NCBI GenBank assembly: GCA_947427095.1
Contig: CANEGO010000001.1
Span: forward strand, 131,428 to 195,427
DNA: 64,000 nt
Origin: an uncultured Clostridium sp.
GTDB lineage: Bacteria; Bacillota_I; Bacilli_A; RF39; UBA660
Direction of reading: 5' to 3'
The notes under the pieces were generated by a model. It saw only the letters and a list, made by a program, of their open reading frames with translations. It had not been told where the DNA came from and searched no databases. The position numbers and the translations under genes are program-made. Shown here piece by piece: positions 43,981-52,005 of this stretch. The stretch's first letter is position 1; every line of letters starts with the position of its first letter.

Positions 43981-44212
43981 TCTTAACTCGAAGAGTTCGA
44001 GCAAATTTCACTATGGAGCCTTAACGATACACGTATGCGAAAAATTATACTCCCAAGATTGATTAAATCAACTGATAATTAAATTATAGCAGATATTCCA
44101 ATTATTTCAAGTGGGAGTATGGAAAAAAATGCCTAAATATGTTATTATTATAGTAGATTTGTATCATTAAAATTATGATACTTTTTATTTTAGAAAAATT
44201 AAGGAGGATGTT

Positions 44213-45025
44213 ATGGAAACAGTAAATGGATATTTAACTTCAATACAATCAGATTTATATGTAAATGGTACAGAAAAAGATAGTATTAAGACATCTATAG
44301 ATGCAATATGTACTAGACTAGGTTATTACTTTGGAAATTCAGAACATAATATTCATAAAATTATTAAGAAAGATATCTTTGGTTCTTATAGTAGAGACAC
44401 TATGCTTTCAAGAAAGTACGATGAAGATTCGGATATTGACTTAATGATTATTTTTGAAGATGCTAATGAATATACACCGCAAACTTGCTTAAATTGGCTA
44501 AAAGAATTTGCTGATTATTGGTATCCAAATTCATTAGTAAAACAATCTTTACCAACAATAGTTATTGAATTACAAAATATAAAATTTGAATTAGTACCAG
44601 CATATAAAAATGATTATAACAATTTATATATAGCAAAAGACAGTTCAAATTGGCAATATACTAATCCTAAAGATTTAAACGATAGGATGGTTAAATTAAA
44701 TTCAAATACTAATTTTGAATTTAAAAGAATGATAAGAACAATCAAATATTGGAATGTTAAAAAGAATTATAGAAGATATAAATCATATTTTTTAGAAAAA
44801 TATTTAACAGAAAAGTTTGAAACTTCTTATATACATTGTAAAAATCAATTTGATTATTTAGATTGGGCTTTCTATCATTTAGGACATTATGATGCCAATG
44901 ATGACTATATAAGTAGTAGAATAAAATCTGCTCAGTCAAATATTACGGATGCTCAAAATTATGAAAAAAATTGCGACTATGATTCTGCAGTGAAATGTAT
45001 AAAAAAAATAATTCCAGAGACATAA
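44213..45025 (+). CDS. Pol-beta-superfamily nucleotidyltransferase, SMODS-like (candidate second-messenger synthase)
   Basis: 270 aa. Strong AAGGAGG RBS. Active-site pattern GSYSRDT...DEDSDIDL (GS-x10-DxD) plus a downstream acidic residue. Confidence 0.45.
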   Translation: METVNGYLTSIQSDLYVNGTEKDSIKTSIDAICTRLGYYFGNSEHNIHKIIKKDIFGSYSRDTMLSRKYDEDSDIDLMIIFEDANEYTPQTCLNWLKEFADYWYPNSLVKQSLPTIVIELQNIKFELVPAYKNDYNNLYIAKDSSNWQYTNPKDLNDRMVKLNSNTNFEFKRMIRTIKYWNVKKNYRRYKSYFLEKYLTEKFETSYIHCKNQFDYLDWAFYHLGHYDANDDYISSRIKSAQSNITDAQNYEKNCDYDSAVKCIKKIIPET

Positions 45026-45035
45026 GAGGTATTGT

Positions 45036-45812
45036 ATGGAAAATGAAAGAAAAGATGAAGTTCAAGAACTTTACGATAGATGCAATAGAATTTCAAAGTA
45101 TGCAGATTGGTTGTTTTTAATTAATATAGTGATTTCATTTATATTAATATTTGATTTTAAATATAGAGATATACTTATTATTATAAGTTTAATATTAACT
45201 ATTATATATGTTGTATTAGTAAATATAAATGAAATCTATTTTAATAATCTAGCAGAAAATGAAAGAAGGAAATCCCTTTTAAAAGAGTCTTTTGATGTTA
45301 ATACTACTTTAAGAGAAACAAATAAGTATTACAATAATGAAGCTGAACCATCTATTAAAAAACTTGGTCTAAATTGTTATGAAAGTGCTTTTTTTACAAA
45401 AAGAGTAGTAGATAAAATGCTTCCCAGAAATATTATTAAAATTGTTATATTTACTATAATATATATTGTTTTAATGATGAAATTAGAAAATATGGATTTA
45501 TTATTAGTAATTACACAAACATTATTTTCGGCTGAAATTATATTTTCATTTATAAAATTATGTTATTATAAATTCCAATTAGATAAAGTTTGTAACGAAT
45601 TTCAAAATATATTTCTTATAATAGGCTTAAAAAATAAGGATGTGAATGTTTTAATTTTAGATGCTACTATGGATTATGAATGCTTAAAAAACTACTGCAA
45701 GATTTCAACGTCAAGTAAAATATTTTTTGACAATAACAAGAAATGGTCAAAAGATTGGCAAAAATTGTTAAGTAAAATTAGGAAAAAATCGGAGAGGGAT
45801 AATAATGAATAA
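45036..45812 (+). CDS. Four-TM membrane protein (S-4TM-like candidate effector)
   Basis: 258 aa. Four predicted TM helices (WLFLINIVISFILIF, ILIIISLILTIIYVVLV, IIKIVIFTIIYIVLMM, LLLVITQTLFSAEIIFSFI). It lies 10 nt downstream of the NTase. Confidence 0.45.
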   Translation: MENERKDEVQELYDRCNRISKYADWLFLINIVISFILIFDFKYRDILIIISLILTIIYVVLVNINEIYFNNLAENERRKSLLKESFDVNTTLRETNKYYNNEAEPSIKKLGLNCYESAFFTKRVVDKMLPRNIIKIVIFTIIYIVLMMKLENMDLLLVITQTLFSAEIIFSFIKLCYYKFQLDKVCNEFQNIFLIIGLKNKDVNVLILDATMDYECLKNYCKISTSSKIFFDNNKKWSKDWQKLLSKIRKKSERDNNE

Positions 45813-46434
45813 AAAAATTGAAAATGCTATAAAATACTATAAGTTATGTACTAAACTAAAAGATACAATTAGGACAGGTCCTATTGTTTGGAATGCCAAA
45901 AGAGAAAGAATCGAAAGTGTTGCAGAACACATATATGGAGTTCAAATGTTAGCATTAGCTATTTATTATCAATTTGGATACAAATTAGATATTATGAAAG
46001 TTATTTATATGTTAGCAATCCATGAACTAGAAGAAATAGAAATTGGTGATTTAGCATTTTTTGAAACTACAAGAGAAGAAAAACTCGTTAAAGGCAAGGA
46101 AGCAACAGATTATATACTAAAAGATTTTCTTGGAAAAGATGAAATATCGGCATTATTAGATGAGTATAATGAAAGAACTACAGAAGAATCTAAATTTGCT
46201 TATAATTGTGATAAATTAGAATGTGATATTCAAATGAAACTGTATGATCAAGAAGGATGTTTTGATTTAAATAATCAGCCTAATAACCCAATCCTCAATA
46301 ATCCTAGTGTTAAAAAAGTATTGGATAGTGAAAAAAGCATATCTAATGCCTGGATTGAATTTGATAGAAGCAAGTATGAAGATGATAAAAACTTTATTGA
46401 AATTGTTGACTATTTAAAAGAAAAAGAAATATAA
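45805..46434 (+). CDS. HD-domain phosphohydrolase (YfbR-like 5'-deoxynucleotidase family)
   Basis: 209 aa. HD motif ESVAEHIYGVQMLALAI...AIHELEEIEIGD. Overlaps the upstream gene by 8 nt. Confidence 0.55.
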   Translation: MNKKIENAIKYYKLCTKLKDTIRTGPIVWNAKRERIESVAEHIYGVQMLALAIYYQFGYKLDIMKVIYMLAIHELEEIEIGDLAFFETTREEKLVKGKEATDYILKDFLGKDEISALLDEYNERTTEESKFAYNCDKLECDIQMKLYDQEGCFDLNNQPNNPILNNPSVKKVLDSEKSISNAWIEFDRSKYEDDKNFIEIVDYLKEKEI

Positions 46435-49775: not shown

Positions 49776-49778
49776 TTT

Positions 49779-50021
49779 TTATCTCTCTCTTTCTTTATTT
49801 TTAATACTTTTTTCGTAAAATTCTACTGATTTTGTTTTAGAATTATATTTGAAATATCCTACATCATTGTTCTTATCAACAAGTTTTATAGTAAATCTAT
49901 CTAGCAAATATAGATTAACTTCATCAGTATTAAATTGCTTTTTTAGATAGGCAAGAACTTTAAATTGTTCTATGGTATTTACTTGATTTTTGATAATGTT
50001 CTCTTTGTTAAGAAGTTGCAT
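49779..50021 (-). CDS. Small hypothetical protein (candidate excision or regulatory factor)
   Basis: 80 aa. Overlaps the recombinase stop by 14 nt. Confidence 0.35.
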
Positions 50022-51879
50022 AGTTATTAACTCCTTCCAAAACTTTTTCTTTTGGCTTAGTAGGATTGTAAATTACAATTCCATATTTTGTATCAATATC
50101 ATCTTTGGTAATGGGCGATTTTGTTGTGCTTTCAGTAGGTGAAATTGGCAAAATTCTTATAATCTTTTCATCTTTTTTGGGTATAAATTCACCAATTATA
50201 TTGCCAGTTTCTTCATCAACTTTTTCATATATTTGATAAAATTTAGTTTCATAATATTCATTTAATCTATCTAAATATTCTTGTACTTGTTCATCAGTTA
50301 TATTGCCTGTACCTAATACAAATTCTTCTTTACCATTAATTTCTACTGGAACAAGTACATCTAAAATACCATTGCCAAGTAACTTTGATAACATATCTAC
50401 AAAACTTCTTCTAAAGTTAATTTTCTCTACATAAAGTTCATTATTACTATCTTTAGTTATAATAACTGATTCCACTAATTTAGAAATAAATTCTTGTTTT
50501 TCTTCTTTAGATTTACTTTCCCAAGTAGTCTTAACAACACTATTTAAAGTATCAAGTCTTATCATTGTTTCTCGCTCAATATCACGATCTGCCATTAGTT
50601 GTTGTGGCGAGAAAGTCATATTATCTAAATCAAGACATTCATTTTTTCTTTGTTTTAGTATTTCTAGTTTATCTTCAATTAGTTTGTAATCTTCTGAAAA
50701 ATCCTCCATTTCAACAATGCCACTCATATAGGCTTTTTTAATACGTTCTTTTTGTTTTTCTAATTGTTTAATCTCTTTATCTATATCATCAGTCTTTGTA
50801 GGCTTATGGTCTGCTAAAATAGGTAAGAAATACTTTTTAACTGCCATATCATACTCAACCATATCATAAATAAAGCTCGTTAGTAATTCTTCAATTTTAT
50901 CTTCTCTAAAATTCAAGTGACACTTTTCACAGTTGTAATACATATACTTTTTCTTTTTACCACCAGAGCCTTTGCATTTCATAATTTTGCCACAAGTAGG
51001 ACATTTAATCTTTTGGAAGAATAAATAAACTCTATCTCTAGTATAAGTCCTTTGGTTCTTTTCTTTTTGATGTTGGCATTCTTCCCATACTGCTCTTGAA
51101 ATAATAGGCTCTACAACATTCATATAAGTTACTGGCTCAATTTGCTTATTTTTTGCAATTCTTTTATATTGCTCATAATCACCCATATAGATTTTGTTAT
51201 CAATAATCTTTTGGATTGTAGTGTCTTTCCAAGGTTTAGGAGTAAGTACTTTTTCTTCATTAAATATATTAGATATTTGCTGAAAACTCTTACCTTCTAA
51301 ATACATCTTAAATATTCTTTCAATTACTGGTTTAGTTGCCTCATCAATAATTGTTTTCTTATTACCATCTTTTTTATAACCAAGTGGTAAAACACCTGGC
51401 AAATGTCCTGACTTAATGGCACCATTTAAACCAAATTTTGTTCTTTCTGATACGATTTCAATCTCCAGTTGTGATAAGACTGTAAGCATTCTAACAAAGA
51501 ATCTACCATTAGCAGTAGAGGTGTTAACATCATCTCTGTCACATACTAGGAAACAATTATATTGTTCTAATACTGATATTAGTTCTTCTAAATCACGAAC
51601 TGAACGAGTGACTCTATCTAATTTGTAAGCTACAATATAGTTGATTTTACCTTTCTTCATATCAGATAACATTTCTTGAAATGCAGGTCTATGTTCCATA
51701 TCTTTTGCACTTATTCCTGCATCCTCATAGACTTTAAATACTTCATAACCTTTAAATGCACAGAGTTGTAATAATTTTTCTTTTTGTTCTCCTAAAGAAA
51801 ATCCTTCTCGTGCTTGATCCTCTGTCGAAACACGAATATAAACTGCTGCGATACTCCTTTCATTATCCATAATTATCAT
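50008..51879 (-). CDS. Large serine recombinase (TnpX/CcrB/phage-type)
   Basis: 623 aa. N-terminal resolvase catalytic domain [12 protein letters not shown] with the Ser nucleophile, a recombinase domain, a zinc ribbon ([10 protein letters not shown]...YYNCEKC) and a coiled coil. Confidence 0.85.
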
Positions 51880-52005
51880 TTCTCCTTTCTCTTTTTGGAA
51901 TAGTGAAAGGCACCAAAAAAGGTGTCACATAACAAGGACACCTAGAATATATTGATTTTTACACGACAAAATAAATCAATATAGTGGGAGTATGTAACTC
52001 ACCAA

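Follow-up and report, generated by a model that had tools for sequence, protein, structure and literature searches.

A CBASS-carrying element of a probable mobilizable serine-integrase family at tRNA CCA ends in gut Firmicutes

Genes at the locus and the set of relatives

The DNA considered here is a 64-kb stretch (the window; GC about 27%) of contig CANEGO010000001.1 from an uncultured gut Firmicute, in which a large serine recombinase (LSR) gene, a TnpV-family gene and a relaxase gene on the minus strand share one segment with a plus-strand cargo operon (Table 1). A single protein cluster, defined at 90% identity, ties this DNA to 'Clostridium sp. CAG:594'. The 8372 bp at 44014-52385 are most probably an IME (integrative mobilizable element) whose serine integrase is specific for the CCA end of tRNA genes and whose cargo includes a cyclic oligonucleotide-based antiphage signaling system (CBASS). 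An earlier reading of the same DNA, the original prediction, had already recognized an integrated, probably mobilizable element with a serine recombinase at one end, reading inward, and its gene map holds: all open reading frames (ORFs) lie where it placed them, the 80-aa ORF, the TnpV-like 117-aa ORF and the relaxase are on the minus strand, with Pfam supporting the latter two, the cargo operon is on the plus strand, and the recombinase has the catalytic domain and zinc ribbon attributed to it.

The recombinase was used as a query against one genome per GTDB species, which yielded 395 loci with a relative; 80 of them were fetched for comparison (labels such as L019 or L067 denote fetched loci or further comparison genomes). 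Both ends could be delimited in 20 relatives (21 elements in the comparison of junction cores), and adjacency to a tRNA gene was testable in the 61 loci with enough sequence upstream of the recombinase gene. Protein families were assigned with Pfam, PADLOC, NCBIfam and PHROGs. The 20 delimited relatives measure 4.5-10.8 kb and have a common backbone and differing cargo, much of it defence genes. Subfamily 1, to which the window element belongs, encodes orf90, the recombinase, usually orf80, TnpV and the relaxase; subfamily 2 has no relaxase and, beside orf90, the recombinase and TnpV, encodes a 123-aa MbpA/NikA-like protein.

Boundaries and attachment arms

Comparison with the 80 related loci, in which blastn finds shared DNA from about 44013 to 52391-52429, defines the extent of the element. 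The original prediction had drawn it at about 7.9 kb (44046-51994), with a 12-bp repeat marking the boundary. The conserved element DNA extends about 100 bp beyond the copy of that repeat at 44110 and about 400 bp beyond the copy ending at 51994, taking in orf90 at the right end, and both copies are internal. Both junctions in the window are TGGAGC, which on the other strand reads GCTCCA, the 3' end of tRNA-Gly.

The same arrangement recurs in every relative aligned. The far end reads ...TTTCGCATACGTGTAT(C/A)GTTAAGGCTCCA and is followed by unrelated sequence, usually a terminator hairpin, and the recombinase end begins with (A/T)AAGGTAAAATCGTCGCACC... directly after GCTCCA. The core common to the two junctions is GCTCCA in 20 of 21 elements and TCCA in all 21, and in eight of the 21 the base following CCA is not the same at the two junctions. 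We infer a 2-bp crossover within TCCA; a crossover at this position would leave the tRNA with its CCA end. The arms and core in the window agree with the family consensus, and all backbone ORFs are intact. The predicted circular joint would read ...TCGTTAAGGCTCCAAAAGGTAAAATCG... / ...ACGTGTATCGTTAAGGCTCCAAAAGGTAAAATCGTCGCACC..., and the predicted restored chromosomal site ...CACTTGCTCCATAGTGAAATTTGC... / ...GATTCCCATCACTTGCTCCATAGTGAAATTTGCTCGAAC....

Table 1. Features of the element and its junctions (positions refer to the window).
Feature	Position	Strand	Evidence and remarks
Left boundary, core TGGAGC	44014..44019		attR-type junction with chromosomal tRNA trailer and terminator; at least 30 related elements lose homology exactly here, flanks diverge
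Far-end recombination arm, minus-strand reading TTTCGCATACGTGTATCGTTAAG	44020..44046	-	Presumed left attP half; nearly invariant in both subfamilies
Second outward promoter-like site, TTGATT-16-TATAAT	44044..44071	-	10/12 positions match
P_out, outward-facing promoter-like site, TTGAAA-16-TGcTATAAT	44083..44110	-	11/12 match plus TG extension; points out of the left end
12-bp repeat copy 1, minus strand CATACTCCCACT	44110..44121	+	Abuts P_out -35; just upstream of plus-strand promoter-like site 44120-44148 facing the cargo
CBASS cyclase (CD-NTase, SMODS domain)	44213..45025	+	Pfam SMODS 1.8e-30; PADLOC Cyclase PDLC00769 2.6e-71
CBASS 4TM membrane effector	45036..45812	+	PADLOC Effector 4TM PDLC00719 8.4e-57
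HD-domain phosphohydrolase, first of the HD/MBL/methyltransferase module	45805..46434	+	Pfam HD_3 1e-26
Metallo-beta-lactamase-fold (MBL) hydrolase	46452..47258	+	Pfam Lactamase_B_2 8.9e-16; NCBIfam RNase Z-like matches under cut-offs
S-adenosylmethionine (SAM)-dependent methyltransferase	47274..48035	+	Pfam Methyltransf_11 1.5e-24
MobP-type relaxase, 434 aa, MobA/VirD2 nuclease domain, histidine motif HIHNH	48051..49355	-	Pfam PF03432 1.1e-36
Candidate origin of transfer (oriT), intergenic block TGTCTATAAGCGAGCA..TACTCCCAC	49356..49421	-	Conserved in both subfamilies and in the L019 sister element
TnpV-family protein, 117 aa	49422..49775	-	Pfam TnpV PF14198 3.5e-34
orf80, 80 aa	49779..50021	-	Overlaps recombinase stop codon; subfamily 1 only
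LSR, 623 aa, the element's integrase	50008..51879	-	Pfam Resolvase, Recombinase, Zn_ribbon; PHROG 95 integrase 3.5e-118
Hairpin and U-run	51915..51943	-	Between orf90 and recombinase start codon; predicted fold; conserved
Control region: inverted repeat ATATTGATTT-N14-AAATCAATAT and 12-bp repeat copy 2	51949..51994		Conserved; overlaps plus-strand promoter-like TTTACA-16-TATAGT
orf90, conserved 90-aa protein	52006..52278	-	First gene past the tRNA-side junction
Subterminal 15-mer AGATTGATTTAATCA, direct repeat of 44056-70	52339..52353	+	Conserved in alignment; within AT-rich hairpin and T-run
tRNA-proximal arm, minus-strand reading AAAGGTAAAATCGTCGCACCAAGTGACGTTAA	52354..52385	-	Presumed right attP half; conserved in alignment
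tRNA-Gly(GCC) 3' part, 44 nt, GCTCCA (52386-91) at end	52386..52429	-	attL-type junction; identical to 56208-56251 of the intact gene

Integration at tRNA 3' ends

A co-oriented tRNA end lies 406-688 bp upstream of the recombinase start codon in 46 of the 61 testable loci (Gly 35, Thr 5, Leu 5, Cys 1), and in the 14 tRNA-abutting loci that were aligned (tRNA-Gly, with one tRNA-Thr) the junction is the encoded CCA. Close and distant relatives stand in identical register behind intact tRNA genes; in the remaining loci examined, the element lies behind the GCTCCA-terminated far end of another element, in a tandem array. One pair of loci shows the site with and without elements: a flank that directly follows tRNA-Gly in L067 is found in L019 (94% identity over 1081 bp) 16.3 kb off, beyond two tandem elements, which is a family-level comparison of an unoccupied and an occupied site. 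Judged from these alignments, integration is site-specific, at the tRNA 3' end, with the CCA end of the gene as the exact insertion point for the recombinase family.

This placement recalls classical tRNA islands. An island by the Islander definition has a tyrosine integrase and, at its far end, tens of bp of displaced tRNA sequence; among the element genes, Pfam and the other family searches detect no tyrosine recombinase, the LSR being the sole recombinase, and the far-end repeat is just GCTCCA, with a 44-bp repeat bracketing the neighbouring 3.8-kb segment instead.

Recombinase, TnpV and small ORFs

The recombinase combines a Resolvase catalytic domain, with its serine, with Recombinase and zinc-ribbon domains, the organization of an integrase-type LSR. 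Its catalytic domain matches TP901-1 integrase at E = 3.6e-21 (78.8 bits) and the N-terminal domain of TnpX (2mhc) at E = 2e-4 (23.5 bits), and Pfam detects no DUF4368. The best annotated relatives are phage integrases (PHROG 95; Anoxybacillus and Geobacillus phages, about 33% identity). A tblastn search of plasmid and phage records returned no close relative; its matches covered no more than 70% of the protein, at 34.5% identity or less. In some relatives (L034, L041) the recombinase gene is split.

The TnpV gene always accompanies the recombinase, being found in every delimited relative and in the sister element described below; in the window orf80 stands between the two genes. The orf80 product has no family match in Pfam, PADLOC, NCBIfam or PHROGs. 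The same four collections return nothing for orf90, which also lacks a fold match, its AlphaFold models attaining a predicted local distance difference test (pLDDT) score of 90 in just one of five. Of the 20 delimited relatives, 19 have orf90, with 82-97% identity, the copy in L013 having been missed by the ORF screen; its 358 homologues are all unnamed.

A sister element occupies L019 (2883-9493). It sits right behind tRNA-Gly, ends in GCTCCA and is itself followed by a stacked main-family element; it encodes a 95-aa ORF, a 596-aa serine recombinase, TnpV, a NikA-like ribbon-helix-helix protein and cargo. The sister family has the same gene layout and the same design of motif plus outward promoter as the main family.

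Repeats, promoters and hairpins

The 12-bp sequence AGTGGGAGTATG is exact at 44110-44121 and 51983-51994, as the original prediction had it, and occurs nowhere else in the 64 kb even with one mismatch allowed; with 0.07 occurrences expected, the pair is not a product of chance. Its core TACTCCCA is present in six copies in the window versus 0.88 expected, five of them within 44048-52690, and occupies three conserved places in the family: directly upstream of the -35 of the outward promoter-like site near the far end (TTGAAA-16/17-TGnTATAAT), in the stretch between orf90 and the recombinase gene, and in the oriT-like block upstream of the relaxase gene or the NikA/MbpA-like gene. The position of P_out is kept in all 27 aligned far ends. 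The second outward site overlaps both the palindrome TTGATTAAATCAA (44059-71) and the subterminal 15-mer AGATTGATTAAATCA (44056-70).

Several smaller signals named earlier are real, some of them at slightly shifted positions. The inverted partial copy of the 12-bp repeat at 44046-44055 is there, as is ATATTGATTT-N14-AAATCAATAT at 51949-51982; a further copy, TGGGAGTATA, exists at 52683-52692 (given as 52685-52694), and the near-palindrome TTGATTAAATCAA at 44059-44071 (given as 44057-44069). The TTGATT/AATCAA repeats proposed for both ends fare less well, the right one falling short of the true end by about 410 bp; the subterminal repeat proper, AGATTGATTWAATCA, has exact copies at 44056-70 and 52339-53 alone, each 32-36 bp from the nearest core copy. 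The ggtgtc/gacacc hairpin folds as predicted on the minus strand, with its stem at 51920-51943 and its U-run at 51915-51919.

Placed in the recombinase leader, this hairpin has the look of a terminator or attenuator. A divergent relative, L044, differs in sequence and has the same two-hairpin architecture. An AT-rich hairpin with a T-run, read only from the letters, lies on the minus strand at 52319-52347. We read TACTCCCA and the TTGATT/AATCAA palindromes as probable regulatory sites rather than recombination boundaries. Treating the 12-bp repeat as a target-site duplication was dropped, as the repeat is internal to the element and conserved in the family; a hybrid tRNA/element promoter at 52403-52375 was likewise abandoned, its -35 being weak and not conserved among the target tRNAs.

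Mobilization genes and cargo

The relaxase also matches NCBIfam TraI_MobP, at 8e-10, a value under the family cut-off. Relatives have inverted repeats in the oriT-like block that precedes the gene, and the block at 49356-49421 is a candidate oriT. None of the 11 element ORFs contains a VirB4, VirD4 or TcpA domain in Pfam or NCBIfam searches, that is, there is no coupling protein or type IV secretion system (T4SS). The element has what an IME is expected to have: its own integrase at its edge, defined att junctions with very short repeats, and a relaxase without a T4SS. The subfamily 2 loci (L024, L026, L031 and others) keep the 123-aa MbpA/NikA-like protein and the oriT-like block, whose hairpin loops contain CTCCC; such elements may depend on a relaxase supplied in trans.

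On the strength of its domain matches, the cargo is a type I CBASS, composed of a cGAS/DncV-like nucleotidyltransferase (CD-NTase) cyclase and a four-transmembrane (4TM) effector, together with an HD/MBL/methyltransferase module. PADLOC finds no Cap2/Cap3 or HORMA/TRIP13 matches beside the CD-NTase and effector, the composition of type I. The MBL and methyltransferase proteins match only unrelated PADLOC models, the methyltransferase matching mad2 at 1.7e-20. The trio is also present in L015 and L017, there without CBASS genes, and hence appears to travel as a module independent of CBASS. Cargo across the relatives comprises CBASS, Abi, PARIS-like, OLD and restriction-modification genes, and also transporters.

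Chromosomal surroundings

The 44-nt tRNA fragment that the element abuts (52386-52429) is identical to 56208-56251, the end of an intact tRNA-Gly(GCC) gene at 56208-56282. The 3.8-kb segment between the two copies (52430-56207) encodes no recombinase, and the separation of the fragment from the intact gene by this integrase-less DNA makes the locus an array. The segment is flanked by perfect 44-bp direct repeats (52386-52429, 56208-56251) and has TTGGCACGATTT x2 repeats near each end (about 52560-83 and 56094-118). On it lie a 563-aa ORF that matches no family, the gene for a radical-SAM enzyme and, at 55642-55881, that for a 79-aa peptide in which the motif GPCSACGAC is duplicated; this set looks like a cluster for a ribosomally synthesized and post-translationally modified peptide (RiPP). 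The stretch at 52594-52730 resembles the far end of the sister element family, which in L013, L016, L019, L033 and L046 forms tandems with the main family; within this stretch an outward promoter-like site (ATGAAA-18-TATAAT) comes after TACTCCCA. The segment accordingly seems to hold a remnant of a sister element, and as a whole resembles an integrase-less remnant or a cis-mobilizable island. Counting it as part of the same element was rejected, since relatives abut the tRNA directly.

Beyond the element the region varies. L100 (1-6167) shares the left flank (97.8% identity up to window position 43934) and has there a different recombinase-orf80-TnpV element with other cargo, which marks the locus as a hotspot. 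In a related species (L092, 15771-15973) the tRNA-Cys/tRNA-Gly pair has the opposite orientation to the two conserved flanks, which enclose a completely different set of genes; by this comparison the region as a whole is highly plastic. At 43947-43978 stands a palindromic terminator, AAAACACTAATCCAAATTTGGATTAGTGTTTT, 32 nt long and perfect. Rfam identifies ordinary chromosomal features elsewhere in the window, a T-box leader at 25136-25350 and a glmS ribozyme at 34328-34477.

Comparison with known systems

The original prediction assigned the element to the Tn4451/Tn4453 family of Clostridium perfringens and Clostridioides difficile, the earliest IMEs reported to have a serine recombinase, and the two share a layout: an LSR gene at one end, directed inward, near a TnpV-family gene, a mobilization function with no transfer apparatus, and cargo between the backbone and the far end. 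The parts differ. The window recombinase is remote from TnpX and lacks DUF4368, the domain that marks the TndX-like multi-targeting clade (PMC10083194). The Tn4451 relaxase is MobV (PMC5704250, PMC5357655), whereas that of the window is MobP (PF03432). Tn4451 inserts with low specificity at GA and the window family at the tRNA CCA end, with a core (GCTCCA/TCCA) that contains no GA; the cargo is catP in the former and CBASS in the latter, which has an extra conserved orf90. In Tn4451, expression of the recombinase is tied to the circular joint. There, the -35/-10 pair is split across the joint, whereas the window element has a complete promoter at one end. The earlier suggestion that expression depends on the circular form is retained in that the outward signal would reach the recombinase only across the joint, and amended in that its promoter is complete rather than split.

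Streptococcal serine-integrase IMEs (PMC5357655, PMC5704250) are similar in having a single edge integrase, a canonical relaxase (MobQ, MobC, MobV or MobP), no T4SS, very short flanking repeats, site-specific integration and accretion at the same site. Serine-integrase IMEs are said to insert in and disrupt genes (PMC5357655, PMC5704250), and the streptococcal ones insert inside, and disrupt, the protein-coding genes rumA, traG, maff2 and snf2, whereas the window family leaves the tRNA intact.

The nearest precedent found appears to be the Dehalococcoides islands at ssrA (PMC3146451), which are serine-recombinase islands at the 3' end of the transfer-messenger RNA (tmRNA) gene, form tandem arrays with gene-end repeats, and have an integration module that adjoins the RNA gene. 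They differ in carrying a CcrB-like integrase and a second, small serine recombinase, in lacking TnpV and a relaxase, in having a 20-bp repeat in the T-loop region, and in targeting a tmRNA rather than a tRNA. Islander-class tRNA islands (PMC4383910) likewise lie directly 3' of a tRNA gene that is preserved, and form tandem arrays; they use tyrosine integrases and have repeats of tens of bp, compared with a serine recombinase only and 4-6 bp in the window family. As to the cargo, its two-gene cyclase and 4TM effector layout, with strong PADLOC matches, is that of type I CBASS; the adjacent HD/MBL/methyltransferase genes are no recognised CBASS accessory set. In the literature covered, which is incomplete, no description of this element family was found.

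Interpretation and alternatives

The best label for the element is, in our judgement, a member of a widespread family of gut-Firmicute serine-integrase IMEs. We infer mobility, the crossover position, promoter use, the oriT and defence activity from sequence comparison, and on this basis the following cycle can be proposed. The recombinase would join attP, made of the two conserved arms, with attB, whose conserved half would be the T-arm and acceptor end of the tRNA. The excised circle would be nicked by the MobP-type relaxase at the oriT-like site upstream of its gene and, as the element lacks genes for a coupling protein and a T4SS, would rely for its transfer on a co-resident conjugative element. 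In the integrated form orf90 and the recombinase gene lie directly downstream of the tRNA. P_out faces outward from the far end, and its transcript would reach these genes only by crossing the circular joint; from P_out in the circle, transcription would be expected to cover orf90 and, past the leader terminator, the recombinase.

Several observations weigh against this interpretation. The absence of a relaxase from the delimited relatives of subfamily 2 means that mobilization is not universal in the family. In the window itself, the element abuts the 44-nt tRNA-Gly(GCC) fragment and no intact tRNA. The intact tRNA-Gly (56162-56282 region) has a trailer and terminator similar to those of the related species in L092 and for this reason looks unoccupied, which makes it an apparently free attachment site 3.8 kb from the element. 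The predicted attP has no convincing dyad symmetry, and the search for promoters turned up no good one that would serve orf90 or the recombinase gene while the element is integrated. Look-ups for exact matches to the recombinase (with two start codons), orf90 and the 563-aa ORF of the 3.8-kb segment returned none. An empty site in this species was absent, as was a circular joint, from two metagenome scans, one with the predicted empty-site junction and one with the left flank alone, and contig searches did not recover it. All Logan contigs with the left-flank gene end exactly at the 43947-43978 palindrome, which brought the search for such a site to a halt; the sole right-flank contig ends inside tRNA-Gly.

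Among the alternatives, the one to be taken most seriously, though unlikely, is that the element belongs to the family and is no longer mobile, a fixed island stranded beside a tRNA fragment. The fragment in place of a functional tRNA, the apparently free attB nearby and the split recombinase genes in L034 and L041 are what such an island would lead one to expect. Opposed to this are the intact backbone ORFs of the window element, the match of its arms and core to the family consensus, and the fact that the one conserved half of attB, T-arm plus acceptor, is still there in the fragment.

It is less probable still that the element is a phage-related satellite, or the remnant of a cryptic prophage, whose serine integrase is of phage type and which a helper phage, not conjugation, would move. 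The kinship of the recombinase with phage integrases suggests this origin, as do the lack of a relaxase in subfamily 2 and the anti-phage character of much of the cargo, as in phage satellites. Against it, Pfam and PHROGs detect no capsid, terminase, packaging or replication genes in the element, either a full-length relaxase or a NikA/MbpA-like relaxosome protein is conserved with the oriT-like block, and identity to phage integrases is at most 34.5% and confined to the N-terminal 60-70%.

Least credible of all is a Tn4451/Tn4453-family transposon at about 44046-51994, bounded by the 12-bp repeat and moved with low target specificity by a TnpX-type recombinase: a recombinase gene near tnpV and a mobilization gene does recall Tn4451, and the 12-bp repeat is statistically real, but homology runs past both ends, the 12-bp motif is internal and conserved beside promoters, and the weak TnpX match (E = 2e-4), the missing DUF4368, the MobP relaxase and the site-specific insertion all contradict membership.

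Significance

With the window element most probably a tRNA CCA-end-specific serine-integrase IME carrying CBASS, a broader proposal can be put forward tentatively, as somewhat less than an even bet: that it represents a large, undescribed clade of TnpV-paired serine integrases that use the tRNA 3' end (acceptor end, U73, CCA; TCCA crossover), shuttle defence genes and are controlled by a switch of promoter and TACTCCCA operator. If so, classical tRNA islands would have their serine-recombinase counterpart in these elements. Specification of only the tRNA half of attB would account for tandem stacking, and the expression switch would consist of the outward promoter and the putative TACTCCCA operator, possibly bound by TnpV. 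TnpV would gain a conserved context and a candidate DNA motif.

Reviews and island-finding tools take tRNA genes to be targets of tyrosine integrases only, and serine-integrase elements to be intragenic; with such assumptions, the tools would miss or wrongly delimit a serine-integrase family at the tRNA-Gly CCA end. The natural attB would be short and nearly universal, which makes the integrases of interest for genome engineering. For the bacteria that host them, the elements would act as a shuttle of defence genes among gut Firmicutes, and may offer CBASS and other defence genes one path of spread through the uncultured members of this group.

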